Assembly (NCBI GenBank): GCA_019326865.1
Contig: GCA_019326865.1_4101.1
Reading direction: 5' to 3' (one strand)
Source of the DNA: a phage
DNA: 64,000 nt
Made by a program: the position numbers and the translations under genes
In this document: piece by piece, positions 10,913 through 63,052 of the stretch
How the letters are laid out: each line of letters starts with the position of its first letter
Position numbering within the stretch: the first letter of the stretch is position 1
The notes under the pieces: model-generated
Told to the model about the DNA's origin: nothing
What the model saw: only the letters and a program-made list of their open reading frames with translations
Database searches by the model: none

Positions 10913-10924
10913 GAAAAATAAATG

Positions 10925-10952
10925 TTGACAAGATAGAATGATGTGATATAAT
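10925..10952 (+). promoter_or_regulatory. sigma70-type promoter P1 (TTGACA-N16-TGaTATAAT)
   Basis: Consensus -35 TTGACA at 10925-10930, extended -10 TGATATAAT at 10944-10952. Confidence 0.65.
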
Positions 10953-11017
10953 AAGCATCAGACATAAAGTTTTCAAGCGACACAAGATGTGAGTTTGAAA
11001 AAAATAAAAAAAAGTGA

Positions 11018-11045
11018 TTGACAAGTTGAAACGATGTGATATAAT
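11018..11045 (+). promoter_or_regulatory. sigma70-type promoter P2 (TTGACA-N16-TGaTATAAT), tandem copy of P1
   Basis: TTGACA at 11018-11023, TGATATAAT at 11037-11045; same gATGTGATATAAT core as P1. Confidence 0.65.
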
Positions 11046-11145
11046 GTTCACATCAAGGCAGCAAAGAGATTTACCTTTTTAAACACACGGATGATTCATG
11101 AAGTAATAAAGGAACTGATAAGTTAAATTATTTTAACACAGTTCC

Positions 11146-11174
11146 TTTACTTTTGCCCACGGATTGGCTATAAT
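11146..11174 (+). promoter_or_regulatory. promoter-like element P3 (TTTACT-N17-TATAAT)
   Basis: TATAAT at 11169-11174 with TTTACT 17 nt upstream; 42 nt before the AAA+ gene start. Confidence 0.4.
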
Positions 11175-11215
11175 AGAAACTTAAACGATTTTATCCAACA
11201 AAAGGAAATATATAC

Positions 11216-12541
11216 ATGACTACTCAAAACGATATCCTGAATGTTAAACTGACTCCAAAGAAAGCTAAAGAAGCAATGGCACTAGCTGACATGATTCAAG
11301 ATAGCCTGATGATTTGGGGTAGCCCAGGTATCGGTAAGTCTGCAATTGCTCGTCAATACGCTGATGAAAATTACCCTCTGCGTAAAGATAACGAAGCTAA
11401 AATCGAGTTCATGAAACAACAAATTGAAGCTGACCCTGAAAATGCTGATCAGCTACGCCGTGAACTGGCTGCATTTGAAGCTAAACTAATCGACCAAGAT
11501 ACTAACTTCATCGATTTCCGTTTGTCTCAAATTGAACCAAGTGACCTCCGTGGTATCCCTGTACCAGAGAAGCTTTTCCGTAAAACTGACGGTTCTCTTC
11601 TCAAAGAATCTGAGCTTGCTGAAGCAAAAGATTATGTTGCTGAAACTGCTGTAGTTTGGGCTGCACCTAAAGTGCTGAAATTGCCAGAAGATTGGAAAGG
11701 GGTTATTCTGTTTGACGAAATTAACTCTGCAATGCCAATTGTTCAGGCAGCGTCTTATCAGCTAATCCTCGACCGTTGTGTTGGTGAGATGAAGCTACCT
11801 AAAACTGCACTGATTCTTGCAGCAGGTAACCGTGAAACTGATGGCGGTGTAACGTTCTCACTGGCTACACCACTACGTGACCGTATGACACACATTGAGA
11901 TGATTCCTTATCATCAAGATTGGATTAACGATTATGCAATTGGTAAACGTTTGAACCCAGCAACTGTTGCGTTCATCAACAACACAGGTTCTAAGTACTT
12001 TAACACTCTTAGCCCACAAGATCCTTCTCACAGTGGTGGTACTTCTCCACGTTCATGGGAAGCTGTAGCACGCTACGAAGATCTCAAGAAAACTAAGACA
12101 ATTGATAAAGAAGTGTTCCGTGCAATGATTGCTGGGCGTGTAGGTGAAGGTGTAGCAACTGAATACATTGAGTACGTTGATAACGTTGCTAAACTACCAG
12201 ATACTATGTCTATTCTGTCTGGTGAAATCAAAGATATCGATGCAACTCTTGATATTTCTGCGAATTATTTTATTACTTTGAACTTGGTTTATAAAATTAT
12301 CGACCTGTTCAATGAGAAGCAAGAACAACGTCTACCAGTGGAAGAATGGGGTAAACTGTGCAACAACTTCATTACCTTCCTTGACCATAACTTCTCTGCA
12401 ACTCAAGCAGAACTGGCAGTTCTGGCAATTCGCACCATTACGCTTCATAAGGTTGCGATTTCCATTAAAGATGTACCAGCGTTTAAAGATTTTATCGCTA
12501 AGTACTCTGAACTAGTTCGTAAAGCACGCTCTCTTGGGTAA
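11216..12541 (+). CDS. MoxR-family AAA+ ATPase (single AAA module)
   Basis: Walker A GSPGIGKS, Walker B VILFDEIN, sensor-1-like ILAAGNRETD; RBS aaaggaaat; own terminator. Confidence 0.8.
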   Translation: MTTQNDILNVKLTPKKAKEAMALADMIQDSLMIWGSPGIGKSAIARQYADENYPLRKDNEAKIEFMKQQIEADPENADQLRRELAAFEAKLIDQDTNFIDFRLSQIEPSDLRGIPVPEKLFRKTDGSLLKESELAEAKDYVAETAVVWAAPKVLKLPEDWKGVILFDEINSAMPIVQAASYQLILDRCVGEMKLPKTALILAAGNRETDGGVTFSLATPLRDRMTHIEMIPYHQDWINDYAIGKRLNPATVAFINNTGSKYFNTLSPQDPSHSGGTSPRSWEAVARYEDLKKTKTIDKEVFRAMIAGRVGEGVATEYIEYVDNVAKLPDTMSILSGEIKDIDATLDISANYFITLNLVYKIIDLFNEKQEQRLPVEEWGKLCNNFITFLDHNFSATQAELAVLAIRTITLHKVAISIKDVPAFKDFIAKYSELVRKARSLG

Positions 12542-12560
12542 TTAACAAAGAGTGGTTGAC

Positions 12561-12596
12561 AAGAAGGATACGATATAGTATCCTTCTTTTATCTTA
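12561..12596 (+). terminator. intrinsic terminator (aagaaggata / tatccttctt stem + T-rich tail)
   Basis: 10-bp perfect inverted repeat with 8-nt loop right after AAA+ gene stop. Confidence 0.65.
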
Positions 12597-12615
12597 ACTA
12601 AACGAGGAAATATAC

Positions 12616-14040
12616 ATGTCGGATAACAAATCTTCATCTAAGTTTAATGAAGTATCACCAGAACTCCAAAAGGAATGTCAAGATCGATTGGTTCTGGCTC
12701 GTACATCTTTGATGTTAACTGCTCCGTTCTTTGGTGTTTTGGCTTCGCGTTTACGTCCTGTTCCTAATAATACATGGTGTCGTACACTAGCAGTTGATGG
12801 GAAACATTTATTCTACAATGTAGAATTTGTTATGGGCATCCAAGATCAATCTAAAAAGAAAGAGTACGAAGATGCTATTCGTGAAAAACATCCAGAGGTT
12901 ACTGATGAACAATTAAAAGAAATGACAGAAGGTCTGACAGATGAAAACCTCATTGCAGTGATTTGTCATGAAATTTTGCATTGTGCTTACGACCACTTCC
13001 TTCGTCGTGGAATGCGTGATCCACAACGATACAATCGTGCAGCAGATTATGCAATTAACCAAATTATTGTCCGTGAGAAAATTGGAAAAATCCAAAGCTC
13101 ATGGTTATATGATAAAAAATATGAAGGAATGACCGCTGAAGAGATTTATATTCTTCTGGAAGATGAAGAACAAAAAGAAGAAGGTGAAGGGAACGGTCAA
13201 CCACAAAGCGGTGGTGGTGAAGGTGAAGGTAAAAATCGCGGAACTTTTGGTGATATCAAAGATGGTAAGGGTAAACCAAAAGGTACAACAATTGACCAAC
13301 ATGACGTTCCACAAGAAGGCCAAGACGGTGGTTCAAGTGAACAGCAAAAACGCGATTATATGGATGATTTCAAAACAGCAATGATGAATGCTGCACGTGC
13401 TGGTGGCACACCAGCAGAAATCGCTCGTATGATTAATAACTTCAAAGAACCAAAGATTGATTGGCGTTCTAAACTTCAACGCACTCTTCGTAGCTGGTTG
13501 AAGTCTGATGCAACTTATCAAAATCCAGCACGTCGTTCATGGGGTGCAGGTTTTGGTTCTAATGGTTCATTTTATGGTAATCCAATTTATCCAGGGATGA
13601 AACCAGATGATGATATTGATATTGCAATTGCACTCGATGCTTCTGGTTCTATTTCCGAAGACATGCTTCGTGATTTTATTAGTGAAGTTCTTGGTATCAC
13701 TAAACAATTTAAACAGTTTAAAATTCGTATCATGACATTTGATACTGAAGTTTATACTGTAAAAGATTACAAAACTGGTGAAGAACGTAAGATTCTGGAA
13801 TATCCAGTAAAAGGTGGTGGTGGTACTGACTTTGAAGCAGTATGGGTTCATATGAAGAATGACAACTATAAGCCTAAACAGCTTGTAATGTTTACTGATG
13901 GTGAACCGTGGCAGTCATGGGGTGATCCTAACTACTGTAAAACACTGTTTGTGATTCACAGTAACCCAAATAAAGTTGCACCATTTGGTGAAACAGTACA
14001 CTACGAGTATGAAGCAGACAAAAAACGTCAACGTAGTTAA
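12616..14040 (+). CDS. VWA-domain protein with N-terminal HExxH metallopeptidase-like domain
   Basis: HEILHCAYDH (HExxH) in N-terminal half; MIDAS motif IALDASGSIS plus downstream GGGGTDF in C-terminal half; glycine/lysine-rich linker. Confidence 0.75.
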   Translation: MSDNKSSSKFNEVSPELQKECQDRLVLARTSLMLTAPFFGVLASRLRPVPNNTWCRTLAVDGKHLFYNVEFVMGIQDQSKKKEYEDAIREKHPEVTDEQLKEMTEGLTDENLIAVICHEILHCAYDHFLRRGMRDPQRYNRAADYAINQIIVREKIGKIQSSWLYDKKYEGMTAEEIYILLEDEEQKEEGEGNGQPQSGGGEGEGKNRGTFGDIKDGKGKPKGTTIDQHDVPQEGQDGGSSEQQKRDYMDDFKTAMMNAARAGGTPAEIARMINNFKEPKIDWRSKLQRTLRSWLKSDATYQNPARRSWGAGFGSNGSFYGNPIYPGMKPDDDIDIAIALDASGSISEDMLRDFISEVLGITKQFKQFKIRIMTFDTEVYTVKDYKTGEERKILEYPVKGGGGTDFEAVWVHMKNDNYKPKQLVMFTDGEPWQSWGDPNYCKTLFVIHSNPNKVAPFGETVHYEYEADKKRQRS

Positions 14041-14052
14041 GTACTAAATAAT

Positions 14053-14084
14053 GAGAACGGAAATTTTCCGTTCTCTTCTTTTAT
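14053..14084 (+). terminator. intrinsic terminator (gagaacgga-aattt-tccgttctc + T-run)
   Basis: 9-bp perfect stem followed by ttcttttat. Confidence 0.75.
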
Positions 14085-14086
14085 AA

Positions 14087-14116
14087 GTGAGACAACTCAC
14101 AAAAATATGATATAAT
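14087..14116 (+). promoter_or_regulatory. promoter (GTGAGACAAC-N11-TGaTATAAT class)
   Basis: Extended -10 TGATATAAT at 14108-14116; upstream GTGAGACAAC box recurs with identical spacing at 63017. Confidence 0.55.
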
Positions 14117-14151
14117 AGTTATTGTACCAATATACATGGAGAGTATTAAAA

Positions 14152-14397
14152 ATGGAACAAGAAAATAATCAAATTCAACTAACCCTTCTAGACCTAATCA
14201 ATGCAGCAAAAATCATGGAAGCTGCTGTTGCCCGAAATACATTTAAAGTTGAAGAACTCGTGGATGTTTCCCCAGTTGTCGCCAAATTTGTTTCTTTTGC
14301 AAATGAAGCACTTGAAGATATTAAAGCTCAAGAAGACGCTGCTAAAGAAGAATCTGAATCACAAGATATTAAAGCTCAAGAAGATAAAGGAGAATAA
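14152..14397 (+). CDS. small acidic hypothetical protein
   Basis: ATG with RBS ggagag 9 nt upstream (listed ORF begins at 14122); C-terminal DIKAQED repeats. Confidence 0.5.
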   Translation: MEQENNQIQLTLLDLINAAKIMEAAVARNTFKVEELVDVSPVVAKFVSFANEALEDIKAQEDAAKEESESQDIKAQEDKGE

Positions 14398-14399
14398 TT

Positions 14400-15056
14400 A
14401 TGGCAGCTATTCGTCATGTTGGTGTAATGCGTAATACAGGTTCACGTGTTTTTGTTGTTTGGCGTTCACTACCAGATGATCCTGACCACTGCCTTATTGT
14501 TTATCGTGATTCCTTACCAGAAGCATATGTTCATGCAGTAACTGATATTGTGATGGGTCATGGTCAATCAAACATTGATTTGTGGGAAGTAATGCATAAA
14601 ATTGGTTACCTGGATGGTCGTAAAATGCTAGATGTACTACACAATATGCAACATTTACGTCGAGTTCGCACTTGTGATATTGATATGCATACTGGTGGTA
14701 ATAATAAAATTTCTCTTGATGTTCTAAACAAAGCATTAGATGAAAATCAAGCGAAAGTACAAGAAGATGGTAAAGTAAAAGACTTTAACCCATTTAACCC
14801 ACAAGAAGTAGACACAAAAGTGGAAGAAGCAACTATTGTTGAACAACTTATCTCTGACGCTAAAAAATATGAAAAACTTGCCCAAGAGCACTATGAACGT
14901 GCATACAATTTAGAGCCAAGTTTGCGTCCACAGACACAAGTTGTTGAGCAACCGAAAGACAGTAAGACCATTTATCTAGAAATTCCAGAAGGTATTTCAC
15001 AGACTAAAGCTATTGAGAAAGTAAAACAACTATTTGCAGAACGTAAAGCAAAATAA
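14400..15056 (+). CDS. hypothetical protein
   Basis: ORF coupled to neighbours. Confidence 0.5.
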   Translation: MAAIRHVGVMRNTGSRVFVVWRSLPDDPDHCLIVYRDSLPEAYVHAVTDIVMGHGQSNIDLWEVMHKIGYLDGRKMLDVLHNMQHLRRVRTCDIDMHTGGNNKISLDVLNKALDENQAKVQEDGKVKDFNPFNPQEVDTKVEEATIVEQLISDAKKYEKLAQEHYERAYNLEPSLRPQTQVVEQPKDSKTIYLEIPEGISQTKAIEKVKQLFAERKAK

Positions 15057-15059
15057 AAT

Positions 15060-15653
15060 ATGACAAAGAATGAATTAGATGAAGCAATTAAAGGTTTATC
15101 TAATGTATGTTTTAGTGGCGGGGCAGCAGGTGCTGACCGCCTTTTTTCTATCTATGCAAAAAATAATGGATTTGAAGTTATTAATTTTTCATTCAAAGGT
15201 CATGTGCATAGTGTAGATGAAAGTACTATATTAGAAATACCACCCAATATTCTATCTGATATTTCTATATTAAATCAACTAAATATTGCATGTTACTCGT
15301 TACAGCGAAAAGTTCCAAAGCCTGGCTCCTATGTTTATAATTTACTTGCAAGGAATAGTTATCAGATACTTAATACAGAAAGAATATATTGTATTGCAAA
15401 TATCACATCACCAACTAAGGTAAGTGGTGGTACTGCATGGGCAGTACAGATGTATATGGATTCAGTTGAAAATCCTGAAATTTATTGTTATGATATGAAT
15501 TCACGTTCTGTGTTTTACTTCGACACAGTTCTGAAAGAGTTCAAACAATCATTAGTGGTTCCACCACCACATGGTAACTGGACTGGTATTGGTTCACGCA
15601 ATGCCACAGAAAAACATATGCAACATTTTATTACATTTTTCAAGGAAGTATAA
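15060..15653 (+). CDS. hypothetical protein with glycine-rich FSGGAAGADRLF motif
   Basis: ORF; motif reminiscent of Rossmann-type nucleotide-binding loops; stop overlaps thyA start (TAATG). Confidence 0.45.
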   Translation: MTKNELDEAIKGLSNVCFSGGAAGADRLFSIYAKNNGFEVINFSFKGHVHSVDESTILEIPPNILSDISILNQLNIACYSLQRKVPKPGSYVYNLLARNSYQILNTERIYCIANITSPTKVSGGTAWAVQMYMDSVENPEIYCYDMNSRSVFYFDTVLKEFKQSLVVPPPHGNWTGIGSRNATEKHMQHFITFFKEV

Positions 15654-16582
15654 TGAAACAACTACAAGAACTATATCAAAAAATTCTAGATGAAGGCGTA
15701 GAAAGCGTTGACCGTACTGGTGTTGGAACAATTAAACTTATTGGTCAACAAATGCGTTTTGACCTTAAAGATGGTTTCCCAGCCGTGACGACAAAACGTC
15801 TAGCTTGGAAAGCAATGACTTCAGAATTACTATGGTTTATTGAAGGTTCCCATGATGAACGTCGCCTTTGTGAAATTTTGCATGGAACTCGTGATACAAA
15901 AAAGAAAACTATTTGGACAGATAATTATCTAAATCAAGGTGTTGCTCTTGGTTATACTGATGGTGAGTTGGGTCCAGTGTATGGTAAGCAATGGCGTGAA
16001 TGGGAAGATTATAAATTTAGTTCCAGAACTGAAGAAATTCAAGAATTAAAAGATAAAGGATACAAAGTTATCGATTATACTGGTTCACATGGTGTTGTTA
16101 TGAAACGTACAACTGACCAATTACAGGAACTAATCAAAGGTATAAAGTCCGATCCATATGGTCGTCGCCACATTCTAAGTGCATGGAACGTTGGTGAGCT
16201 TGATGATATGACGTTACCACCTTGTCATAGCTTTGTGCAATTTTGTGTAGTACAAGGGAAACTAAGCTGCATTCTACATCAACGCTCCGCTGATCTTTTT
16301 TTGGGAGTTCCATTTAATATCAGTAGTTACTCACTACTAACTCATATGATTGCACAAATTACTGGTTTAGATGTTGGTGAATTTATTTGGAATGGTGGTG
16401 ATTGTCACATTTATAAAAACCACGTTGAACAAGTAAAAGAACAACTACTGCGAGAACCCCGTGAATTACCTGAATTGTGGCTTGATCCTACAATTACTAA
16501 TATTGAAGATTTCACAATGGATTCTTTCAAATTAGTGAATTACAACCCAATGCCAACAATTAAAGCACCGATGGCTGTATAA
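15653..16582 (+). CDS. thyA: thymidylate synthase (T4 td-like)
   Basis: Active-site LPPCH, DRTGVGT, ELLWF, RRHILSAWN, QRSADLFLGVPFNI, C-terminal PMAV; close to T4 td as recalled. Confidence 0.95.
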   Translation: MKQLQELYQKILDEGVESVDRTGVGTIKLIGQQMRFDLKDGFPAVTTKRLAWKAMTSELLWFIEGSHDERRLCEILHGTRDTKKKTIWTDNYLNQGVALGYTDGELGPVYGKQWREWEDYKFSSRTEEIQELKDKGYKVIDYTGSHGVVMKRTTDQLQELIKGIKSDPYGRRHILSAWNVGELDDMTLPPCHSFVQFCVVQGKLSCILHQRSADLFLGVPFNISSYSLLTHMIAQITGLDVGEFIWNGGDCHIYKNHVEQVKEQLLREPRELPELWLDPTITNIEDFTMDSFKLVNYNPMPTIKAPMAV

Positions 16583-16615: not shown

Positions 16616-18886
16616 TTATCTAATTGTTACCAATGTTCTTCCGTCGAAACGTACATCAGGAGTTGAAGGTATACTGAACACTACGTTAGTGCCGTTAAAC
16701 GTCACGCTATCGACCTCAACACGAGTATAGACCCCAGGACTAACCTGTTCCTGTATCTCTGCTGTGACGATGTTTGAGGCTGTTACAGTAAGGGTGTAGT
16801 AATTACCACTTAATACCCAAGATGAAATGGTAAATGCATCGGTTCTTACTGAACCTGAACCAATTGGAACCCATTGACCTTGAACTTTTTGCATTGAAGT
16901 ACGCTCGGTATTGGAGTATGCAATCATACCATCAACACCGACAGAGTTATCAATAGTAGCTAGTACTGGTAATTGAATACCATATCTATTGAAACGTGTT
17001 CTAATAGTTCCATTATCATAGATACTTACATCAGCATAATCACCCATTGAAAGTTTCAAATCTGAATCAACTAATTGCATTGTACTTTGATTAGTAGGGC
17101 TTTCTAACGTAATTATTCCATTTGCCAATAAGCTTAAGTTTTTAAATTTATTCGAAACACCATTAAATGTCGTATTAGCATTGAAAGTACTCGTGCCATT
17201 AACTACTATTGTGTTTTCTGCGGCTGCACCTAATATAGTATTACTTTGAACAATCAAATTACCACTTGTAGTAATATTAGTAGCTGTAGTATCACCATTT
17301 AATTTTGTATTAGCATTGAAAGTACTAGTACTATTAACTACTAATGTGTTTGTAGCGTTGTCACCTAATATAGTATCACTTTGAACATTCAAATTACCAC
17401 TTGCAGTAATATTAGTTGCTGTAGTATCACCATTTAATCTACTTGTACCATCAACTACAATATTACTATTAAATTTTGTATTAGCTTTAAAAGTACTAGT
17501 ACTATTAACTACTAACGTGTTTGCTGCGGTGTCACCTAATATTGTATTGCTTTGAACATTCAAATTACCACTTGCAGTAATGTTACTAGCTGAAGTATCA
17601 CCAATTAATCTACTTGTACCATCAACTACGATATTACCATGAAAATCGCTTTCACCGTTTTTAAATTCAACTTGTACTGAATACATAGAACTAAATGAAA
17701 TTATATTACTACTTGCACTTATACCAACATTAGTATTAGTTGGATTATCGAAGTGTAATATTGGAGTTAATGCTGGTGTTGTTGTTGTTTGATAGAGTGT
17801 TAGTGATGAGTTGTTAATTCTCACACGTTCATTTCCAGCAGTACTAAATCCAATAGCATCATCAGCAGGATGAAAAATACCAGTATTAGTATCAGACCAT
17901 TTATCAGGATCATTTCCAGGATTACTTGTTGGGTCGAATGGCTTATTATTAAATGCAATCGCTGGGGCAGAAGCACTCCCATATATAACACCAAAACGCC
18001 CAGACCCTATTGTACCGTCATCGTACATTGAATCGCCTGTTCTACGTAAACATTCAATTACAACATTATCTATGGAAGTTTGAACTGTACCAGCATTAGT
18101 TCTGAATTGGCGATTATTTGCAATCATAATAGTGTTATCATATAACACAGAAGCTGCTGAAATACTTGTTCTAGATTGGCGAAGGCGTATGTTTTTATCT
18201 TCAGTAATAATAATCCAGTCACCATCAGATAGTGCTGTTTGATTCATTGGTACACCGGAAGCAAACGGCTTAGTTAAATCATCATCAGTTACCAAATTAA
18301 CAAGTCCACTATGTCCCTCACTAGGGATAGAAGTTGAAATAATTCTCGCAAAAGCGTATGTTACTAGCTTTTCACCCGATATATTTGGGTTAGAATCAAC
18401 ATAATATAAAATTTCAACCCAATTCCCTTGCCCAGTTGGGTTGGTTGGAGTAAATGTAACAGGGCTTGTTTTTGGTTTATTCGCTTCAAAATGTGCTTGG
18501 GCGGCATCCATAATACCACGCACAACATAATAATCACCACTAAGTGATGATGATGGTGCAGGTAGTGGGCTTTGGGCTAACGGTGGGTCAATATCATCTG
18601 GAATTGGATTATATGTACCAACAAACTGTAAACCGCTAGTTACTGAGTCTGGTAATTGAGATGTGAGAAGTTTACCATTTGCATCTAAGTTAGCGAAACG
18701 CCTATATGCCATTGAACCATCTTCAAAATCCAGAACGCCCTCAAACGATTTCCATTCTTTATTGTATCTAATCATCCCTGATCTTATTACATCAGCGGTT
18801 TCTTTTGATGGTGCTTTTGGTAATTCTAAAAAAGATTTACTATCAATAATTACACCACCATCACCTCTAATTCGATTTATACTCAT
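16616..18886 (-). CDS. tail fibre protein with three tandem ~57-aa repeats
   Basis: 756-aa ORF; repeat NIVVDGTSRLxGDTxAxNITASGNLNVQSxTILGD...VVNSTSTFxANTK x3; S/T/N-rich. Confidence 0.65.
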   Translation of the reverse strand: MSINRIRGDGGVIIDSKSFLELPKAPSKETADVIRSGMIRYNKEWKSFEGVLDFEDGSMAYRRFANLDANGKLLTSQLPDSVTSGLQFVGTYNPIPDDIDPPLAQSPLPAPSSSLSGDYYVVRGIMDAAQAHFEANKPKTSPVTFTPTNPTGQGNWVEILYYVDSNPNISGEKLVTYAFARIISTSIPSEGHSGLVNLVTDDDLTKPFASGVPMNQTALSDGDWIIITEDKNIRLRQSRTSISAASVLYDNTIMIANNRQFRTNAGTVQTSIDNVVIECLRRTGDSMYDDGTIGSGRFGVIYGSASAPAIAFNNKPFDPTSNPGNDPDKWSDTNTGIFHPADDAIGFSTAGNERVRINNSSLTLYQTTTTPALTPILHFDNPTNTNVGISASSNIISFSSMYSVQVEFKNGESDFHGNIVVDGTSRLIGDTSASNITASGNLNVQSNTILGDTAANTLVVNSTSTFKANTKFNSNIVVDGTSRLNGDTTATNITASGNLNVQSDTILGDNATNTLVVNSTSTFNANTKLNGDTTATNITTSGNLIVQSNTILGAAAENTIVVNGTSTFNANTTFNGVSNKFKNLSLLANGIITLESPTNQSTMQLVDSDLKLSMGDYADVSIYDNGTIRTRFNRYGIQLPVLATIDNSVGVDGMIAYSNTERTSMQKVQGQWVPIGSGSVRTDAFTISSWVLSGNYYTLTVTASNIVTAEIQEQVSPGVYTRVEVDSVTFNGTNVVFSIPSTPDVRFDGRTLVTIR
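17150..17660 (-). repeat. in-frame tandem repeat (~171 bp x3) inside fibre gene
   Basis: Near-identical DNA units visible by eye; approximate boundaries. Confidence 0.6.
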
Positions 18887-35319: not shown

Positions 35320-35351
35320 AATAATTCGGGTATATCTTTATTTACCATGTA

Positions 35352-35377
35352 GACAAACCATAAGAATGTGATATAAT
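35352..35377 (+). promoter_or_regulatory. promoter with extended -10 (aaTGTGATATAAT) upstream of ClpA-like gene
   Basis: TGATATAAT at 35369-35377, same core as P1/P2; -35 region weak (TAGACA, short spacer). Confidence 0.45.
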
Positions 35378-43700: not shown

Positions 43701-46700
43701 CAAGATATAAATTCCCCAGTTACAAGAGAATTCTGGCTCCACATCACAAAATCTTTAGCAATAGTGTTCCAATCTTGCTGAACGCCGCCATCATTTACAT
43801 CTTCGAAGATCCAGCCATGTTCTTTAAGATACTCACCATAACCACAAATAAAAGTATAGACTTCTTGGTAACTGTTAAAAACCGTTCCATATTCAATAGA
43901 AGCCTCAGACTTCCATTCATTGTAATGGACAACATTACGGTTTTCTAATTTAATAGTTACTTTTCGACCATTTTTCACTGGGAGTTTATATTTAAATTTA
44001 GCACCAACCAAATCATATCCATCGATTTGATATGCACTGCCATTCCATGTAATTTTGATTGCACTCATCTGTTCATCACGAATATTATTCGAACGTACAA
44101 GTCCAATTGTTTGGTTTTCTTGAGAAATCAACCCAAATGATTTAGCATTGAATGTTAGTTGGTCTGCTTTAGTAAAGCCTCCAATTTTATGTCCTACATT
44201 TACATAAGAAGAACGAACAATATCACCATATTTTGTAGTAATGTTTTTATTTTGATACATCAAATAATCACTAACGAACATTTGATACCCAATTGTTCTT
44301 GTGTTATTTTCACCATGAACAGTGGTTTTTTTATCAAAATTAACACGATTACGGGTATCCCCATAAAGAAATTGTTCACCACCAGTGAATATTTCTTTTA
44401 AATTATCATTTCGGGTGTCCCAAAAATAGTTTGCGAATTGTGCTGGTTTAGCTTTATACAATAGCATCATTTGGTCATATGCAAATAATGTGGTATTCAT
44501 GTAAGTGAATTCCATGTCACCCATATCACCATATGCCCAAGGTTCTGCTCTGTGATTTAAAGAACCAGATACTAAACCTAAAATCTCAGGGGCAATATAC
44601 TCAACAACACAAATATCCACACCAGATGATGTTTTATTTCCAGTTTTTGTAATTTTAAATGGTTGTACACCAAATCTTCTATATTTGTTATACTGACCAC
44701 GACGTTCACCAGATAAAATTGTACCAGTGCTACTATCCCCAATAGTATCATTAATATTCCAAAGACCGCTAGGAACTAAATCACCTTGTTCATCTGTGAC
44801 AAGTGCTTCATATACATATACAACATCACTATCACGTTCACCAACTTGAACAGCAGTTGGTTCATATTCTTGGTTCCACCAAGTAGGACGTTGTGTAAAT
44901 CCAAACATTTCCCATGGATGTGTTGCTGGACGATATGTACCATATTGGTCAGTATAGATTGCACGCCACGAACCACGAGCAGGAATTTCAGTACTTTTAC
45001 CATCAACCATATAATAGGTTCCAGTGTAGTTCCATGTTCTCCAGTTACTTGGGTCATAATCATGTGTACTATTACTAATACCATTGGATGCTGTAAAATT
45101 AATATAACCACGTAATAAAAGTGTTTGTTTTTCTTCTGCACTATATTCAGTTTTTGTAAAATATGGAGTAGGGAAAAGGTCATCACTATTCAATACTGGA
45201 ACATAATCAACATCTTTGAATTTATTATCAATACTATTAAAAATTCTATTTTCCAACTCATAAACAACATCATCCATTTTATCAACACCATTAATTACGC
45301 GATATGCTTTTGAAATGATACCAGTATGGCTAATGTTATAAAAGCTTGGTTTACTACCAGCAGTTAGAAATGTAGCTTTCTCAGGAACATATGCTTGTAG
45401 AATACCCAAAAACTGTGGTGTTGGTGGTATAAATGCACGAATAAGTCCAGATGTGCTTCCTACATTATCATAATAGAACGGGAATGAGCTATCACGTCCC
45501 ATATTGATAGTAGTTAAAATAGAATCAACAATACTTGCTGCACTATTTTGTAAAAAGTTTGATGGATTTTCATTATACATACGAAGCATTTGAGTATTAA
45601 ATTTATTAATGAATCTGAAATATTCAGATTGCATAAACATAGTTGCTTCAAATAAATCAATATCTTCATTTGCAGTATGAGCCATCAATGGGAGCATAGA
45701 AGCTTCATTTTGAATAATTTTAGTTCCTACTCCATTATTCACTAATCCCTTAGCTAAACGTTCTTCATAATCGTTGAAGTCATCAGCATAACCACTAGTG
45801 ATATTCTGTTGAATAATATCCTGAAAATGAAGAGTATAGTCTCCTTGATTAATATATATAATATTGGAGTTATATGGGTTATTTTGTAAGTTAATTGGAA
45901 CTTCATATGCACCTAATTCTTTATCAGGTGTTACAGTTCTACTATAAGTTCTAATTTGGATAACAGAATCATCATCTAAATCTATCGAACTATCAAGTGT
46001 GATGCTTTGTACTTGACCTTTTGATACATTCTTTGTATATTTTGATACATTAACACCATCGACATTAACTTCAATAATATCAGAATCATTATCTAAAACT
46101 TTTTGAGCTAATTCAAACGTATGATTATATTTTAAAATCTGAATACCATCACCACTAATCTGATGCCAGTCCAAATAAGTTTCACGTTCTGCTTTATAGT
46201 ACTGATATGTTCTATCAACTTCAATAACATATGCATACATACCATCAACAGGTTCTTTGAACACTTCCATGTCATAAACAGTACTGAACACTCGATACAT
46301 GTCAGTACGTTGGACCTGTGGAGTTTGTTTTACATATTGTTTAGAGTATTCTTTTGAACGAACCCAATCAGTTTTTAGATTCATTTTATTAGTTTCATCA
46401 ATAATGTTATAATAATACAATCCACCAATTTCAACTTCAACACCAAGATGGTCATATGTATAACGTTGTGATTGCAAAAAGTTTTCATATGTGTAATAGT
46501 TGTAATCACCAAGTTCAATGTTATACCCATATACGCTATCAGTAGCGTAATTGTAATTTATTTTAAAACCAAATAATTGTGAACCTTTAAAGTTACTGGA
46601 TGGGTATGTTGTACTATTATCTAGTTTAATCCCATTGCGATCATAAAGTTGGAACTGTGGGAAGACGTTAACACTAGGTTTAGACTGTGCACGAACCCAC

Positions 46701-47737
46701 AAAGTACCATTCCAAAACATAGAACTATTACCATATTCATTACCTTTGGTAATTAAAACAACATCTCCATCCTGTGGTTCACCACTTGGACGAGATTCTG
46801 ATTCTTCATCGGGGTCTAGTGCTAAGCCATAAACACGTGTACCATCTTGCATTTTTTTAACATATATTTTATAAATTCTATTGTTTTCGCCATCGTTACC
46901 AATACTAGTGAATAGAATACGCATACCATCTTGTGGAATAATACCATCAATGCGAATACCACTATTGACATCTTTTTGGATAATATCTTCAGGTTTAATA
47001 TTATCAGAAAAAAGTTCAACTGTGCCACGGAATTTTGTACCATAGTTAATTAGCTCAATATTTTTATTATATTCAATAATTGGTGCACGAGCACGAATAA
47101 AACGAGCATCTTGCATTAATTCTTCGGTCAAGATAGAACCATCTTCCAGTGTTTCACCTAAAGTATACCAAAAGTTTTGTAATGACCAAGTATTACCATT
47201 ACGTGCACCACGTTCCATGACAATGTAGTCAGGGGTAGTAATATTATAAGAGTTTTTTGTATCCCAAAGATATGAGCTAAAATTATTCATTTTATTTGGG
47301 TTGATAGCAGGTGTCCATGCATAAAACTTACCGTTAAATAAGCGGCTTTCATTATCGGTTAGTGCTCCGTAATGACTCATGTACCCAACCAGATCATCAT
47401 AAAATTGAATTGAACGAATAGTCGAATCATCATTTTTAGAGACGTAAGCAGTGGACAACTGATAAAGTTGTCGAGCAACAGTACTTTCGTGTAAAAAGAT
47501 ATTACCAGCAGCGGCTGGAGAACCCATATCACCAATATAACCGTCAACTAATTCGTTTTCAGCCGGATTAAACCATTGTTGAATAACATCATCACTGACT
47601 TTCTGAATATCTTCTAAGCCTTGCATCCACTCAGGCAATCTTTTAATAAAAAGCTTTTTCTGTACTGCTTCAGCCATCTGTGTAGGTTGAAACTTAAAAT
47701 TATTAGTCATTTTCTGGACTCCATATAATTCGTTCAT
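37742..47737 (-). CDS. giant virion structural protein (3331 aa; baseplate wedge/fibre-network candidate)
   Basis: Uninterrupted 10-kb ORF in AT-rich DNA; immediately downstream of gp6-like baseplate gene. Confidence 0.6.
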   Translation of the reverse strand: MNELYGVQKMTNNFKFQPTQMAEAVQKKLFIKRLPEWMQGLEDIQKVSDDVIQQWFNPAENELVDGYIGDMGSPAAAGNIFLHESTVARQLYQLSTAYVSKNDDSTIRSIQFYDDLVGYMSHYGALTDNESRLFNGKFYAWTPAINPNKMNNFSSYLWDTKNSYNITTPDYIVMERGARNGNTWSLQNFWYTLGETLEDGSILTEELMQDARFIRARAPIIEYNKNIELINYGTKFRGTVELFSDNIKPEDIIQKDVNSGIRIDGIIPQDGMRILFTSIGNDGENNRIYKIYVKKMQDGTRVYGLALDPDEESESRPSGEPQDGDVVLITKGNEYGNSSMFWNGTLWVRAQSKPSVNVFPQFQLYDRNGIKLDNSTTYPSSNFKGSQLFGFKINYNYATDSVYGYNIELGDYNYYTYENFLQSQRYTYDHLGVEVEIGGLYYYNIIDETNKMNLKTDWVRSKEYSKQYVKQTPQVQRTDMYRVFSTVYDMEVFKEPVDGMYAYVIEVDRTYQYYKAERETYLDWHQISGDGIQILKYNHTFELAQKVLDNDSDIIEVNVDGVNVSKYTKNVSKGQVQSITLDSSIDLDDDSVIQIRTYSRTVTPDKELGAYEVPINLQNNPYNSNIIYINQGDYTLHFQDIIQQNITSGYADDFNDYEERLAKGLVNNGVGTKIIQNEASMLPLMAHTANEDIDLFEATMFMQSEYFRFINKFNTQMLRMYNENPSNFLQNSAASIVDSILTTINMGRDSSFPFYYDNVGSTSGLIRAFIPPTPQFLGILQAYVPEKATFLTAGSKPSFYNISHTGIISKAYRVINGVDKMDDVVYELENRIFNSIDNKFKDVDYVPVLNSDDLFPTPYFTKTEYSAEEKQTLLLRGYINFTASNGISNSTHDYDPSNWRTWNYTGTYYMVDGKSTEIPARGSWRAIYTDQYGTYRPATHPWEMFGFTQRPTWWNQEYEPTAVQVGERDSDVVYVYEALVTDEQGDLVPSGLWNINDTIGDSSTGTILSGERRGQYNKYRRFGVQPFKITKTGNKTSSGVDICVVEYIAPEILGLVSGSLNHRAEPWAYGDMGDMEFTYMNTTLFAYDQMMLLYKAKPAQFANYFWDTRNDNLKEIFTGGEQFLYGDTRNRVNFDKKTTVHGENNTRTIGYQMFVSDYLMYQNKNITTKYGDIVRSSYVNVGHKIGGFTKADQLTFNAKSFGLISQENQTIGLVRSNNIRDEQMSAIKITWNGSAYQIDGYDLVGAKFKYKLPVKNGRKVTIKLENRNVVHYNEWKSEASIEYGTVFNSYQEVYTFICGYGEYLKEHGWIFEDVNDGGVQQDWNTIAKDFVMWSQNSLVTGEFISCTPSATNAKFGSDFGSVQSIAQNNGGVWSLLDDNNQGIRQYEIETSRIGNIFTVRTLDSNKRIALLRLSLCSYEHAVIFDDKTIFGDYIYQPTYGSIQELIKMYGYITGSWTGRLQAPGFIILESGTIPSFETLVTDFQHYYDNENPVSDVQLQELSSHLIGYQSRDYLQRMISSDVSRVDFYKGFIHDKGTNQVLERVLRVSKSYDTDEYKALQEWAFKIGTYGNIDGKKNLQFKLINDQFKQQPQMVSFDENATSNGNGNNVVYFGDQGKDPRWITRPNGKFSFPMRSGRSEHIQLPDIGPVTLDEVSYTTKDFSTAYNDRISYVNGKGENPESVWMFKDGNGLWNIFELVDTNVQMVSITPIENTDIYAEQFCKVTLTDKIPLEDGDYYYFVDETNFMPDTLTVESQYYTAGEDSKVMVVPFDTSINIEFTDPATRPRLYRYVSRFSSADKRQEYIDKKYSFKAPQSTLFERPTTYDERTNITALYLNVFDPINGVIPGAAMQNVTYTSPIDPAQYNSNGELVQAWGADKVGQVWWNTSTAFYLDYTRAIYDADGNVDIDATNEYKRYNWGRLLPHSTIDVLEWVCSPVEPYNWDKYCKDVAKKNKNNNMYLPSGTALEDNYSTFLEYDSSTDSYVTKYYFWVRDTIYVPPLHTRTKSCTDIARIIKDPSQLNIPWFAPINENSFILSNMQFKVNDDTSILTISYYMDSTEVVKHDQYQLCKEGESYNFNPLIWDSMWNSLIGQETTKSGSVINLLYPDVDNGIGSNKTWFQNVIEARRNFVESANNYYRSQNITTNSVVMEDVFNVKTTEVNPNEVSFRVLSYNNELVIAVEKDKFKENDAVILSSSGYLPNPLSTSAVYFIHFDENGYIQLMNSPANTGNIVTITLENKGEGQHKMIKQSDYVESLGTSLDMTHYWSYADWYDVGYDSKTAYIQETSLEEANTKNYQVGDIIRVTDSENIWTLYIKSQSRDSIYWKAIGRQNSTIELNDILYTDYSVYNDDGSLSNREINVRKALALLKHSFDLHQSEIVFDMVKYVHVEQSVVDWVFKTSYIYIVGLEQSLVQNYSNDNLINQIVEYFEEVKPYRTKIRSQIEQKTSDDDLIKGLCNDLDPNGYIFVDGSWIKTEKDIWDYEYAQYNEVTKKWEQVGALPSDFITPNRRFQEIDIIMHYDNIQCKPNEDLANINDLVSVNKKYQTNEKDSVNNYELQRYIYSFPEYNEKSFDLVNAYLMQIYYPELDVTLGTAHGVNQWYKDHADDLEATDKFTATLERVYKESTHNEMFTDLRQYVQYNTLANRLKLYKDISDDKIHDEVGCGFSGLTYNDNPSTRLPLGFSSSNDYNYGYFEISKELYEKYISLIKDKHPDASDYDIKVKLEVEYGVYVYRYDEVGGDTRFYSDAVHVLAGMRGLFDKDATDKYEKAEEILSKTPIDIYAITMMPRKYVYLNVNGVNQSIPDNRSIDDFMEDYFITNGEMVELAEINLDDLPQDTNNPMYSDYQFILDSISEAKYFNDMNAFDNLALESQTSTIKWEVKDDEVDPYIIDISDINPSGRDVGHIRFTVDGYGFDNVSLVQLRNNSRYQTEGMAIINPYKHTEAIVSIPSYAKVENDINKKSAPFDEKYFYRVRSINSLTEAEIVDNDLSDGDKVMIFTPDGEDFIRYQNHKWETILRVSNIKHNTTPILFTVRTTGKETIELVDTSGAVLRYDNITLAQQNEPVQPLALNIVRVRTFTDSEFVKDGIKLYEQNRNYTIDVINYDVFYDTTLNGGKYNDGVTPDDIDVWIVSNEIFNDDGITIDNGYNLPITGDGVLSELVRTKMPDCLEINVIEYDANDIKPFKNNEGIWGYEYPMVDNIYIGVVGGTITNITTISEENTTYVAQPISVSPYNIRNNVLLGSSANRNDIISIGYEKVEVRNANNLLRGVMYSAEHDFKLNTTYSFNGINLGSYDKFKHYTHNGYTIDLSMYTNSLRISGSDIKNILLVK

Positions 47738-57225: not shown

Positions 57226-57540
57226 TTAGCCTATGTTTCGAGTACCATTAAGATAGTTTTGTACTCTTTGATTTGCTGGTATTCTAATTGTTACTCCACT
57301 TTTAAAATTATATATAGGATCTTCTCCTAATATATCTGGATTTAACAATGCAAAAATATAATATAAACGTTCATTGCCATACATCTCGTATGCTAAACGC
57401 CAAGGTTGATATTCATACTTCAATGGGATCTCATAAAAATCATCAGTATCAGCAGGAACTATATCTCGTGGTAAATTATAACCAAGATACCAAGATTGCT
57501 TCACCTTAGCATAAGGCGAATATTGACTATAGTTGGACAT
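57226..57540 (-). CDS. LysM-like small baseplate protein (tail protein X / gp53-like)
   Basis: Motif YQPWRLAYEMYGNERLYYIFALLNPDI resembles LysM; 1-nt overlap (TTAATG) with upstream gene. Confidence 0.4.
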   Translation of the reverse strand: MSNYSQYSPYAKVKQSWYLGYNLPRDIVPADTDDFYEIPLKYEYQPWRLAYEMYGNERLYYIFALLNPDILGEDPIYNFKSGVTIRIPANQRVQNYLNGTRNIG

Positions 57541-58271
57541 TAAATAAATCCTCCTTTGCGTAATAGTTCACCTCGTTTAAATGCATTGAGGTTGAACGTT
57601 TTAGTCATATAATCAGATGTCGGTTGTTCTTCAAGTTGTAACATAACTAATATTTTTTGAGGAACCCAAACTTCATCTTGTGGATTCATATATCCAGTAC
57701 TTCTAAGTTGTTCGAAGAATTTTCTACTATCCATGTCTGATAAATTAAAAGTACTGTCACTACTATCCAAAGGAACTTGAATATAAGAAACATCATTAGG
57801 ATATGTAAAATTATAAGATTTTAAAATTACAGGAATATCATTATATGTGTAACGACCATATCCACTCAAAAGTAAAATTGGTGGTGGTGCACCAGCAATT
57901 GCCAATTCGGGGTTATTAGCAGATGCTGCTTGTCTACCAAAATCCATCAATGAAACCGAACGTATAAAATGAACACATGCCAACGCATACATGGCTTCTG
58001 CTGCTGTATTGGCATAAAACTCACCCTGAATAGTGAAAACAGTATTGGTGGTGTTTTTGTAGTTGTTATAGTTACTGTTGGTATGTATAGGTGACTGTGT
58101 TTCATACTGAACTGACCTTTGTTCAGTAATTGTTGGTGTTACAGTCCAAACCAACCCATTAGTTGGACGCAGAAACGAAAGTAGAGTTGGTTCGGAGCTA
58201 TCCCCGAAATCACCATATACATAGTTAGCACCTGCGGCTTTAGGTCGTAATCGAATTCTACGATCAATCAT
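57540..58271 (-). CDS. hypothetical baseplate-module protein (start placed at internal ATG with RBS; listed ORF extends to 58328)
   Basis: RBS ggag 9 nt before ATG at 58271; TATAAATA motif lies inside the listed N-terminal extension. Confidence 0.45.
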   Translation of the reverse strand: MIDRRIRLRPKAAGANYVYGDFGDSSEPTLLSFLRPTNGLVWTVTPTITEQRSVQYETQSPIHTNSNYNNYKNTTNTVFTIQGEFYANTAAEAMYALACVHFIRSVSLMDFGRQAASANNPELAIAGAPPPILLLSGYGRYTYNDIPVILKSYNFTYPNDVSYIQVPLDSSDSTFNLSDMDSRKFFEQLRSTGYMNPQDEVWVPQKILVMLQLEEQPTSDYMTKTFNLNAFKRGELLRKGGFI

Positions 58272-58305: not shown

Positions 58306-58313
58306 TATTTATA
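58306..58313 (-). promoter_or_regulatory. T4-late-type promoter motif TATAAATA (minus strand)
   Basis: Exact TATAAATA ~35 nt upstream of proposed start 58271. Confidence 0.4.
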
Positions 58314-58401
58314 CGTGGGACAAATCACTTTTTAGTGCTATAATAACATTGATGGTACAAGGATTGTATCTATTGGATTTAAACATGGAGAGTTGAATAT
58401 A

Positions 58402-59241
58402 ATGACAAATAGACCAAAGCGTAAAAAGTATCTCAATAATGCTGATTTACTTCGTGAAATACAAAAAAGTAAGATTTCATATTGCTGGTTATTAGACAAA
58501 TCATATAGTATGTATGATTATATCGTTTTTCATGAGTCAGAAATTACTGCTGAGTTACTTGAAAAAGCAAAAGCAGCACGAATTAAACGACTTAATAATG
58601 AAATGCTTGATAGTATTCGTGCAAAGGAAAATATGAGTGCTAAAAAAGCGAAAGAATATGCAGAAGAAAATAATCTCGTTATTACTGATGTTCCAATTGA
58701 TGAAGTAGTTATTCGTGTTATAACAGATGAACACATCCCACCAGATACTAGAGTTAATTTTGAACCTTTCAAACATTACATTGTAGATAGTGAAGGTATT
58801 CTTTATGAAGTATGTCGTTCTCATTGGAAAGGTGATCTTGAATCTGGGGAATTTAGTGCTGTTCATGGTAAAATTACAAATGAACTAGGGAAAATGTTCA
58901 TTAAACTTGCAGAGGAAATCTCACATAAATCTAATTATCGAAACTATACATACTTAGATGAAATGATGGGTGATGCAAGAATACAATTAGTTAAAAATGC
59001 ACTTCTCTTTAAAGAGAGCATTCTTTATAAAAAAGACAAACCCGCTGTACAACTAAATCCTTTCTCTTACTATACATCATTCGTAAACAATAGTTTTCGT
59101 TCAATTTTGAATAGTGAGAAAAATGTTCGAAATATACGTGATGATTTACTTGAAATGCATGGTTTTACTCCATCACATACACGTCAAATTGAAATTGAAT
59201 TGAACATGATTGAAAGGAAAAATGAAGATGGCACTGTTTGA
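58402..59241 (+). CDS. late-transcription sigma factor (gp55-like) with internal insertion
   Basis: N-terminus KKYLNNADLLREIQ and region HGKITNELGKMFIKLAEEIS resemble T4 gp55 as recalled; sits next to gp47/gp46-like genes as in T4; RBS ggag before ATG 58402. Confidence 0.5.
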   Translation: MTNRPKRKKYLNNADLLREIQKSKISYCWLLDKSYSMYDYIVFHESEITAELLEKAKAARIKRLNNEMLDSIRAKENMSAKKAKEYAEENNLVITDVPIDEVVIRVITDEHIPPDTRVNFEPFKHYIVDSEGILYEVCRSHWKGDLESGEFSAVHGKITNELGKMFIKLAEEISHKSNYRNYTYLDEMMGDARIQLVKNALLFKESILYKKDKPAVQLNPFSYYTSFVNNSFRSILNSEKNVRNIRDDLLEMHGFTPSHTRQIEIELNMIERKNEDGTV

Positions 59242-62415: not shown

Positions 62416-62427
62416 TTAAAAGATAAA

Positions 62428-62450
62428 GGGAGCCTTAGCTCCCTTTTTTT
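62428..62450. terminator. bidirectional intrinsic terminator (gggagc-ctta-gctccc + T7)
   Basis: Perfect 6-bp stem between convergent genes; stop codon of minus gene lies in loop. Confidence 0.75.
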
Positions 62451-62926
62451 ACATCAACCATATTTAATTTACCGTCCTTAATCAGCTTTCTAGCTTGTTT
62501 TGCACGAGTAGAAGTGTTACTGCCAGGGACAACTCCGAACCCTTCCAGAATCTCGTTTTGCTGCGTTGCTGGGAGCCTTTTAAATTTATTAGTATCCACT
62601 GTTAGTGCCGTGTGATGTATAACTTGCTCTTCTGGTGGAATATTATTGTTCTTTTCAAGGTAGTCAGCAAGGTTGCGTAGTACTTCATGTAATGGCTTAT
62701 CTGTTAAATGACTAAGACAGCGTTTAAATGAATTTGCAACCCTTCCTTCCCATCCATTCACCTCATTTTGAAGAACCTGTCTACAATGTTGATTTCCACC
62801 ATGATAGTGATCCAGTACTGGTTTAGTTATTTTTATGCCTATGATGGGGTCAATGCCATTTTGTTTCTTTAGCAATTCATTTCGATAGTTTGCAGCATCC
62901 TTACTATCTTTTAATCTTTTTTTCAT
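62435..62926 (-). CDS. endonuclease VII-like / His-Me finger nuclease (gp49-like)
   Basis: Motif LDHYHGGNQHC...NEVNG resembles T4 endo VII LDHDHELNG region as recalled; length ~160 aa. Confidence 0.4.
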   Translation of the reverse strand: MKKRLKDSKDAANYRNELLKKQNGIDPIIGIKITKPVLDHYHGGNQHCRQVLQNEVNGWEGRVANSFKRCLSHLTDKPLHEVLRNLADYLEKNNNIPPEEQVIHHTALTVDTNKFKRLPATQQNEILEGFGVVPGSNTSTRAKQARKLIKDGKLNMVDVKKGS

Positions 62927-62956
62927 AATTCCTCACCAAACTATTTGTCATCACAA

Positions 62957-62964
62957 TATTTATA
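62957..62964 (-). promoter_or_regulatory. T4-late-type promoter motif TATAAATA (minus strand)
   Basis: Exact TATAAATA ~30 nt upstream of start of 62435..62926, followed by RBS gaggaa. Confidence 0.45.
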
Positions 62965-63016
62965 GATTAGTTATTTGCAATATTTTAAGTACTTAATTAA
63001 TATTTTATAAAAAAAT

Positions 63017-63046
63017 GTGAGACAACTTTAAAGTTTGTGCTATAAT
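63017..63046 (+). promoter_or_regulatory. promoter (GTGAGACAAC-N11-TGcTATAAT class)
   Basis: Same upstream box and spacing as promoter at 14087; extended -10 TGCTATAAT at 63038-63046. Confidence 0.55.
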
Positions 63047-63052
63047 ATTTGT

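Follow-up and report, generated by a model that had tools for sequence, protein, structure and literature searches.

A fixed-distance box and an extended −10 element define a putative phage-specific promoter class in an Asteriusvirus jumbo phage

Promoter-like sites in the window

The DNA analysed here, a 64,000-nucleotide (nt) stretch of phage contig GCA_019326865.1_4101.1 (hereafter the window), carries six promoter-like sites in which a 7-nt box is separated by 13 nt from an extended −10 element, TGnTATAAT; these sites, the possible reader of their box and a candidate structured RNA behind one of them are the subject of this work. Megablast of positions 10000-16000 matched 51 phage records, with Escherichia phage UE-S1 at the top (99.1% identity) and 121Q, PBECO4 and phAPEC6 next (~94% each), and by this similarity the window is DNA of an Asteriusvirus jumbo coliphage, from a genus of RaK2-like phages with genomes of roughly 350 kilobases (kb). 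The window has a GC content of 34.7% and contains structural genes on both strands, with non-structural plus-strand units in between. A complete unannotated relative, ECO103 4-12-1 (351,992 base pairs, bp; 90% coding, with genes called in this analysis), served for genome-wide tests. Positions refer to the window unless ECO103 or an L-numbered locus is named.

Six copies of the combined pattern GACA-N13-TGNTATAAT are present in the window, where 0.04 would be expected; all are on the plus strand and between genes, and the −10 element ends at the last position given for each of the six promoters in Table 1 (10952, 11045, 14116, 35377, 58344 and 63046). By itself TGNTATAAT shows no enrichment (12 against 8.3 expected); half of the 12 copies fall in intergenic gaps of at least 25 nt, which by hand summation make up ~4.3% of the window, and these six are exactly the copies with GACA in register. 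Every site lies 36-264 nt before a plus-strand start codon or directly ahead of an RNA, often just past a terminator, and reads TGnTATAAT exactly. At the canonical −35 position the sites are graded: TTGACA at 10925 and 11018 (P1 and P2, each scoring 12/12 against the sigma-70 consensus, with TG), TAGACA at 35350 (5/6), and TG(A/G)GACA at 14088, 58316 and 63018, where GAGACA or GGGACA matches at 4/6 with 16-nt spacing. Very probably, these six sites are promoters that share one geometry and belong to one phage-specific class; by box sequence, those at 14088, 58316 and 63018 are class-M promoters (defined below), P1 and P2 are host-type TTGACA promoters in the same frame, and the 35349 site is intermediate.

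All the motifs listed in the first-pass annotation are present, and two of its three sub-observations exceed chance. The sequence ATGTGATATAAT occurs at 10941, 11034 and 35366 on the plus strand (3 against 0.06 expected, with none of 100 shuffles reaching three), preceded by G in the first two copies and by A (35365) in the third. Two copies of GTGAGACAAC, at 14087 and 63017, compare with 0.15 expected, which is marginal by itself since 3 of 100 shuffles reach two; both do lie exactly 11 nt ahead of TGnTATAAT (TGATATAAT or TGCTATAAT), as had been noted. The reported recurrence of TTGACAAG was borne out as far as the existence of its three copies (10925, 11018 and 12556) is concerned, but their number is that expected by chance (3.5); the third copy lies inside a terminator stem and has no usable −10, and TTGACAAG was thus rejected as a recurring element. 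The proposed division into two architectures did not hold, as all six sites consist of a 7-nt box, 13 nt and TGnTATAAT and differ only in the box, and aTGTGATATAAT, which had been given as an architecture of its own, is the extended −10 module alone, found at the GTGAGACAAC sites too. The site ending at 58344, GTGGGACAAA-N11-TGCTATAAT, had been missed. What survives of the claim of phage-specific early or middle promoters is that the GTGAGACAAC box marks a phage-specific class ahead of replication and metabolism genes, which fits the term middle, and the further suggestion that the box is a binding site for a phage factor is plausible. Raw counts of the box alone show no enrichment (TGARACR, 41 against 45.8 expected; GTGAGACAAC with up to two mismatches, 53 against 57 expected) and were discarded; the box carries information only where its spacing to TGnTATAAT is held constant.

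Table 1. Positions of the promoters and associated features (window coordinates, except where a genome or locus is named)
Feature	Position	Strand	Description
Promoter P1	10924..10952	+	Box GTTGACA (TTGACA at 10925-10930), 13 nt, TGATATAAT at 10944-10952
Promoter P2	11017..11045	+	Box ATTGACA, 13 nt, TGATATAAT at 11037-11045
Leader hairpin	11108-11148 (feature to 11155)	+	AAAGGAACUG...CAGUUCCUUU then ACUUUUG; fold prediction
Third promoter-like site	11146-11174	+	Promoter scan
Intrinsic terminator after ATPase gene	12561-12588	+	Stem overlaps the TTGACAAG copy at 12556; not a promoter
Intrinsic terminator	14053..14075	+	Directly upstream of the 14088 promoter; annotated as terminator in UE-S1
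Class-M promoter	14088..14116	+	Box TGAGACA at 14088-14094, 13 nt, TGATATAAT at 14108-14116
Promoter with intermediate box	35349..35377	+	GTAGACA at 35349-35355, 13 nt, TGATATAAT at 35369-35377
Late-type motif	58306..58313	−	TATAAATA, before structural gene 57540-58271
Class-M promoter	58316..58344	+	Box TGGGACA at 58316-58322, 13 nt, TGCTATAAT at 58336-58344
Class-M promoter	63018..63046	+	Box TGAGACA at 63018-63024, 13 nt, TGCTATAAT at 63038-63046; no open reading frame after it
Candidate structured noncoding RNA	63053..63585	+	~530 nt; covariation, minimum free energy z-score −4.24
Internal intrinsic terminator in the RNA	63502-63525	+	Before the conserved 3′ hairpin
Conserved 3′ hairpin	63536-63549	+	CCCCUGCGGGGGG
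RNA paralogs in ECO103	128837-128373, 261991-261623, 208601-208119, 18724-18535	−	All four in gaps free of open reading frames
RNA homolog loci	L022, L024, L025, L033, L036, L037, L038, L044, L047		
Phage sigma-70-family gene	L004:29733-30686 (UE-S1 UES1_148)		Orthologs L018-L021, L056, L057

Promoter classes in the ECO103 genome

The genome-wide motif search that had been proposed as a check was run in ECO103, and the pattern is enriched there, mostly intergenic and upstream of genes. Eighteen copies of GACA-N13-TGNTATAAT were counted, where dinucleotide shuffles give 0.23; 16 of them are intergenic, and every one lies on the main coding strand. The narrower TG[AG]GACA-N13-TGNTATAAT has 10 copies, each intergenic, where 0.03 are expected, and the combined pattern is enriched roughly 80- to 300-fold. 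The host-type pattern TTGACA-N16-18-TATAAT is also in excess (30 against 1.03 expected). A less biased check, starting from the 179 T[GA]NTATAAT sites of the genome, returned GGGAC (9), TGGAC (5) and GAGAC (4) as the top 5-mers at the box position.

Two classes can be described from these counts. Class E is TTGACA-N16-18-TATAAT, mostly without a correctly placed TG, and clusters at 2-57 kb and 266-321 kb of ECO103, in what are interpreted as early regions, the downstream open reading frames (ORFs) being mostly small. Class M is (T)G(G/A)GACA followed after exactly 13 nt by TG(A/C)TATAAT, with an A-rich tract upstream, and comprises ~20 sites at 8-262 kb; the distance from box to TG is invariant in all the class-M sites listed, and G(G/A) stands in place of TT at ~15 of 22 sites. 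By Pfam, the genes behind class-M sites include GyrB/topoisomerase II, a PIF1/RecD-like helicase, a PD-(D/E)XK nuclease, a gp32-like single-stranded DNA-binding protein, NUDIX and ClpP, together with a ClpA/B-like ATPase and a gp55-like sigma. The gp32-like gene has tandem promoters, at 101827 and 101903. Many of the class-E promoters in two stretches (302-318 kb and 2-17 kb; L011, L005) are near-identical, with the form (a)GTA-TTGACA-AAGTAT-N-CAGTACTG-TATAAT-AGTTTACATC, and an AGTACTG palindrome is conserved next to their −10; these copies look like a dispersed repeat family and not like independent promoters.

The promoter class in related phages

In the CBB paper, MEME returned three promoter classes, namely RpoD-like with an UP element, 'divergent RpoD-like' and late ATAAATA, the divergent class being reported in GAP32 as well; its Table S6 lists 18 divergent promoters with the form TGAAACG-N13-(A/G)TGnTATAAT, among them Porf_244 before the gp55-like sigma gene (PMC5259590). 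This CBB class (Promoter 1) and class M are alike in the 7-nt box, the exact 13 nt, the TGnTATAAT element, the ~18-20 copies per genome and the location before DNA-synthesis genes and the gp55-like sigma gene, with matching orthologous positions. The boxes themselves differ, TG(A/G)AAC(G/A) in CBB against TG(G/A)GACA in Asteriusvirus, the latter being nearer to TTGACA, and TG-R-x-AC is common to both; the box of the window, TGAGACA or TGGGACA, is accordingly a lineage variant and differs in sequence from TGAAACG of CBB. Because architecture and orthologous positions are shared with CBB and GAP32, class M is, on sequence comparison, the Asteriusvirus version of the divergent class already predicted in those phages, and thus a further lineage of it; in the papers searched, no description of this class for Asteriusvirus was found.

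The region upstream of the gp55-like gene, aligned with that of five other phages, illustrates how the class varies. The promoter stands at the same place in all of them, with the −10 kept and the spacer diverged; Asteriusvirus has TGGGACA as its box, Mimasvirus and Eneladusvirus share TGGAACG, and Alcyoneusvirus carries TGAATAA. The distant, PA5oct-like Pseudomonas phage Paride has an ordinary TTGACT-N17-TAAAAT at this place upstream of gp55. In the 109-kb Alcyoneusvirus record W12-3, only 5-6 candidate sites were found, with a box of roughly (C)TGAAC(A/G). For PA5oct itself, a distant relative, the PA5oct paper gives TTGAC/TATAATA promoter motifs and dependence on host RNA polymerase.

A candidate structured RNA behind the 63018 promoter

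The class-M promoter at 63018 is followed by a stretch that has a GC content of 36-44%, against 22-30% in the flanking intergenic DNA, and that is repeated in relatives. Sensitive blastn found it in 72 phage records, at 4 places in each Asteriusvirus genome and at 5-6 in other genera, mostly unannotated; the copies in CBB, GAP32, Munch, fHe-Yen9-04, BF and XbC2 have 66-72% nucleotide identity over ~470 nt, copies measure ~450-530 nt, and the family has so far been seen only in RaK2-like jumbo phages. In UE-S1, parts of two copies are annotated as a 158-bp 'repeat_region', one of them directly after the phage sigma gene considered below, a place that one copy takes in Asteriusvirus.

Structure was assessed on an alignment of twelve paralogs and orthologs, contigs of IMG/VR jumbo phages included. 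RNAalifold gave 72 pairs in 14 helices, ten of the helices and 36 of the pairs with compensatory changes. Standard pairs fill 97.3% of the cells, as compared with 83.1% when partners are shuffled and 37-45% when they are slid by 1-3 columns, and the covariation score is 0.454, against 0.181 and at most 0.098, respectively; none of 500 shuffles reaches the observed value on any of the measures. All 13 RNA copies examined carry a box-N13-TGnTATAAT promoter of their own, and the box follows the lineage, being TGAGACA, TGGGACA or TGGGATG in Asteriusvirus and mostly TGAAAC(G/A) elsewhere. Taken together, sequence and covariation suggest that the 63018-63046 promoter may well start an undescribed class of large structured RNA with 4-6 paralogs per genome, each under its own promoter.

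Known families do not account for it. Rfam 15 gave no match in the window at gathering thresholds, no relevant match in 62900-63800 at E ≤ 1 and none in six homologous loci at E ≤ 0.1, and searches for transfer RNA and transfer-messenger RNA were also blank; a weak match to Arrc14 in the AT-rich flank, on the opposite strand, was taken as spurious. The PA5oct paper reports ncRNA002, an RNA of 451 nt that is highly transcribed in RNA sequencing; homology to it was rejected, as nhmmer with filters off returned no match. No earlier description of the RNA was found in the literature. The GOLLD and ROOL RNAs are alike in being several hundred nt long and phage-encoded, with many covariation-backed helices; the RNA considered here differs from them in lacking an Rfam match at a permissive threshold, in having 4-6 paralogs per genome and in the class-M promoter on each listed copy.

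The copies vary at their ends. Most of those outside the window (L022, L024, L025, L033, L037, L038, L044, L049) have a GC-rich hairpin and a U run right after the −10, which looks like a terminator or attenuator just past the start; the window copy is without this 5′ hairpin and has instead the extra terminator hairpin near its 3′ end (63502-63525), which is otherwise present only in ECO103 copy 4 and L047.

Possible readers of the box

Because the box changes in concert by lineage, across ~20 promoters per genome, while the −10 element stays, a phage-encoded reader is favoured, and from this pattern it is probable that a factor encoded by the phage recognizes the box. Foremost among the candidates is the sigma-70-family protein that the phage encodes, the ortholog of UES1_148 of UE-S1 (Table 1), a tentative proposal held with somewhat less than even confidence; by sequence, the reader may be either this sigma or a transcription factor. 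Under this proposal, host core RNA polymerase would transcribe from all six sites, the box would be the recognition element of the phage-encoded specificity factor, and expression would proceed as a three-step cascade, with the early TTGACA promoters under host sigma-70, class M, the gp55-like gene included, under the phage sigma-70-like protein, and the late ATAAATA promoters under the gp55-like sigma. P1 and P2, with a perfect TTGACA and TGn, should be used by host polymerase under any switch.

The protein matches sigma regions 2 and 3 above the Pfam cut-offs, with a region 4 match below cut-off, and in ECO103 the nearest predicted promoter upstream of its gene is TTGACA-type, ~1.6 kb off, in an early region of small ORFs. 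The protein changes rapidly in evolution: its identity is only 84% between UE-S1 and 121Q, whose flanking DNA is 94% identical, and falls to 43% with RaK2 and 33% with BF. The region 4.2 helix, SRSSVHRKYSEA as compared with TRERIRQIEAKA in Escherichia coli sigma-70, is conserved among the Asteriusvirus-like phages with a common box, and other sequences are found in RaK2, Munch, BF and XaC1. The presence of three sigma factors alongside three promoter classes was counted as fitting a sigma as the reader. Among Pseudomonas phages, neither search reported one with the phage sigma; PA5oct-like phages do carry a gp55-like gene.

Several observations weigh against the phage sigma as the reader. The −10 and TG of class M are the exact optimum of host sigma-70 and are the same in all lineages, and the phage sigma is without the residues by which sigma-70 contacts these elements: the tryptophan pair W433/W434, conserved in region 2.3, is replaced by S/S or T/A, Q437 by M in some lineages, Asteriusvirus included, and H455/E458 by Y/V, H/V, H/M or Y/N. 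These contact positions vary between genera while TGnTATAAT is invariant; because the residues are lost and the −10 is not, reading of the −10 by host sigma-70 fits better than reading by the phage sigma. The Asteriusvirus box, moreover, retains the GACA of TTGACA at 16 nt, with TTGACA, TAGACA and TGGACA variants in the same frame, so that the box may be a weakened host −35. Within lineages, co-variation between helix and box is suggestive, but across lineages it is not clean, as RaK2 has the Asteriusvirus-like H at the R588 position and a box that resembles the CBB type, and the comparison extends over three to four lineages, with only 5-6 sites from Alcyoneusvirus. The alignment of region 4.2 is itself uncertain, given 9 inserted residues at the turn of its helix-turn-helix and the sub-threshold Pfam match to region 4. 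Finally, the literature searched yielded no mapped transcription starts and no promoter analysis for Asteriusvirus or RaK2, and no transcriptome or 5′-end data for Asteriusvirus.

A different assignment of roles would have host sigma-70 read the −10 and TG and a phage protein bound to the box at −35 to −29 activate or time transcription, in the manner of MotA/AsiA of phage T4; the same switch would silence the early TTGACA promoters, most of which are without TGn. Thermus phage P23-45 (gp39), where transcription turns to extended −10 promoters, would be a further parallel. Such an arrangement explains why TGnTATAAT is perfect in all lineages despite lost or variable contact residues in the phage sigma, and agrees with the reliance of class E on TTGACA, mostly without a placed TG, as against the constant TG of class M; the box lies where the T4 MotA box lies, and its concerted change by lineage is as expected for any phage-encoded binder. 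Nevertheless, it is rather unlikely on balance. Tblastn with JS98 MotA and with T4 and JS98 AsiA against complete ECO103 and the window returned best E-values of 0.43 to ~1, a search that remote homologs could escape and in which the AsiA query recovered T4-like phages at 100% identity as validation, and no candidate activator emerged. The phage sigma would, in addition, have no promoter class to read, as the MEME analysis of CBB gave three classes only. The 13-nt spacing is rigid in all the class-M sites listed, whereas MotA boxes tolerate 11-13 nt.

Another explanation would dispense with any phage factor: the host sigma-70 holoenzyme alone would use the sites as ordinary extended −10 promoters, and the box would be a degenerate −35 kept by descent and by selection for intermediate strength. 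Extended −10 promoters need no −35 element and work without one, the box keeps four of the six consensus bases (GACA) with a 16-nt spacer, TTGACA, TAGACA, TGGACA, GGGACA and GAGACA form a graded series in one frame, and the reported dependence of the distant relative PA5oct on host RNA polymerase points in the same direction. The lineage variants of the box tell against it, and make it improbable. The TGAAAC(G/A) box of CBB, GAP32 and Yersinia phage fHe-Yen9-04 matches TTGACA at only two of six positions in either register (hand alignment), and it is still conserved over the 18 CBB promoters of Table S6 and orthologous sites. As far as is known, the enterobacterial hosts do not differ in region 4.2 of sigma-70, and a host −35 should therefore not shift with the phage lineage; this, with the 2/6 match of the CBB-type box, is why a degenerate host −35 is considered unlikely, and a strict 13 nt with G(G/A) for TT at ~15 of 22 sites is unlike drift. 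It is very improbable indeed that the sites are AT-rich sequences matching by chance, or signals with no part in transcription (for replication or packaging, for instance, or left over from duplications). In a genome of ~35% GC, sigma-70-like matches are common within genes, TGNTATAAT and TTGACAAG are unenriched alone, and P1 and P2 resemble a local duplication; against this stand the ~80- to 300-fold enrichment, the nearly exclusive intergenic and co-oriented placement, and the retention of orthologous positions while spacers diverge.

T4 middle promoters, which combine a MotA box with a sigma-70 −10 and are read by sigma-70 remodelled by AsiA, are alike in having a phage box in place of the −35 and a host-type −10, often with TGn, in preceding replication and nucleotide genes and in belonging to a cascade that ends in gp55-type late promoters; the gp55-like gene lies here beside gp47/46-like nuclease genes, as gp55 lies next to gp47/46 in T4. 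The MotA box, (a/t)(a/t)(a/t)TGCTTtA with its centre at −30, differs from TG(G/A)GACA, and the six sites are without TGCTT; T4, moreover, has no sigma-70-family protein, whereas this phage encodes one. E. coli extended −10 promoters share TGnTATAAT, which is at consensus in the six sites, and P1 and P2 have a perfect TTGACA too, but a conserved non-host box at the −35 position, rigid spacing and a phage-wide class set the present promoters apart. Bacillus phage SPO1 has a sigma cascade of gp28 and then gp33/34, each sigma having its own −10 and −35 consensus; the proposed logic is alike, in that successive phage sigmas would redirect the host core polymerase to middle and then to late promoters, whereas the putative middle class here keeps the host −10 optimum, which is the chief objection to the phage sigma as reader.

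Asteriusvirus phages are under study as candidates for phage therapy, and the window is now mapped in three tiers of predicted promoters, TTGACA-type, class-M and late ATAAATA. The class-M motif can be used for finding unannotated transcription units. The promoter class alone is modestly new, since it had already been predicted in related phages, and the structured RNA, with its several copies and strong covariation, is probably the result of greatest value to come from following these promoters. If the phage sigma does read the box as well, transcription in these phages would run through three sigmas in cascade, with a family of dedicated RNAs expressed at the middle stage.

Individual sites and other features of the window

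P1 and P2 form a tandem pair, 93 nt apart with P1 upstream, which is probably a local duplication; P2 is conserved in ECO103, and the ortholog of P1 there has TACAAT as its −10. P2 lies 171 nt ahead of a MoxR-like AAA ATPase gene (11216-12541), followed by a DUF2201/VWA gene (12616-14040; both by Pfam). The 164-nt leader, 11052-11215, has a fold z-score of −3.17, and the strong hairpin predicted in it, ahead of the ATPase gene, may act as an attenuator or mark where a short transcript ends. The 14088 promoter stands 36 nt before the gene that starts at 14152 and heads a run of plus-strand genes that ends in thymidylate synthase; its ECO103 ortholog has TGGGACA, an altered spacer and an identical −10. 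The 35349 promoter, conserved in ECO103, lies 41 nt before a ClpA/B-like AAA+ gene (35418-37706). Behind the 58316 promoter come the gp55-like late sigma gene (58402-59241) and genes for gp47/46-like nucleases; Porf_244 of CBB is the same promoter.

The structural genes of the window have T4-late-like ATAAATA motifs 17-57 nt ahead of their start codons, and eight of the nine minus-strand copies are intergenic. At 58306-58322 the minus-strand TATAAATA and the plus-strand class-M box stand back to back with 2 nt between them; this divergent arrangement, with a structural gene on one side and the gp55-like sigma gene on the other, is kept in Asteriusvirus, Mimasvirus, Eneladusvirus and Alcyoneusvirus, and the block GTATTTAT is conserved across genera.

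Three further observations concern genes of the window. Within the thymidylate synthase gene, the 396 nt at 15936-16331 are collinear with ECO103, whereas UE-S1 has an unrelated 1,020 nt in their place (L001:17937-18956) and annotates the whole gene as a single coding sequence of 1,554 nt; an inserted element or a mosaic exchange is a possible explanation. Tandem repeats of 135 and 171 nt, with ~2 copies each and 88-89% identity, occupy 17158-17644 within a minus-strand ORF (16616-18886), a hypothetical gene of 756 amino acids, which suggests a repeated protein module. An ORF of 3,331 amino acids (37742-47737, minus strand), hypothetical in UE-S1, lies between the ClpA/B-like gene and the baseplate genes.

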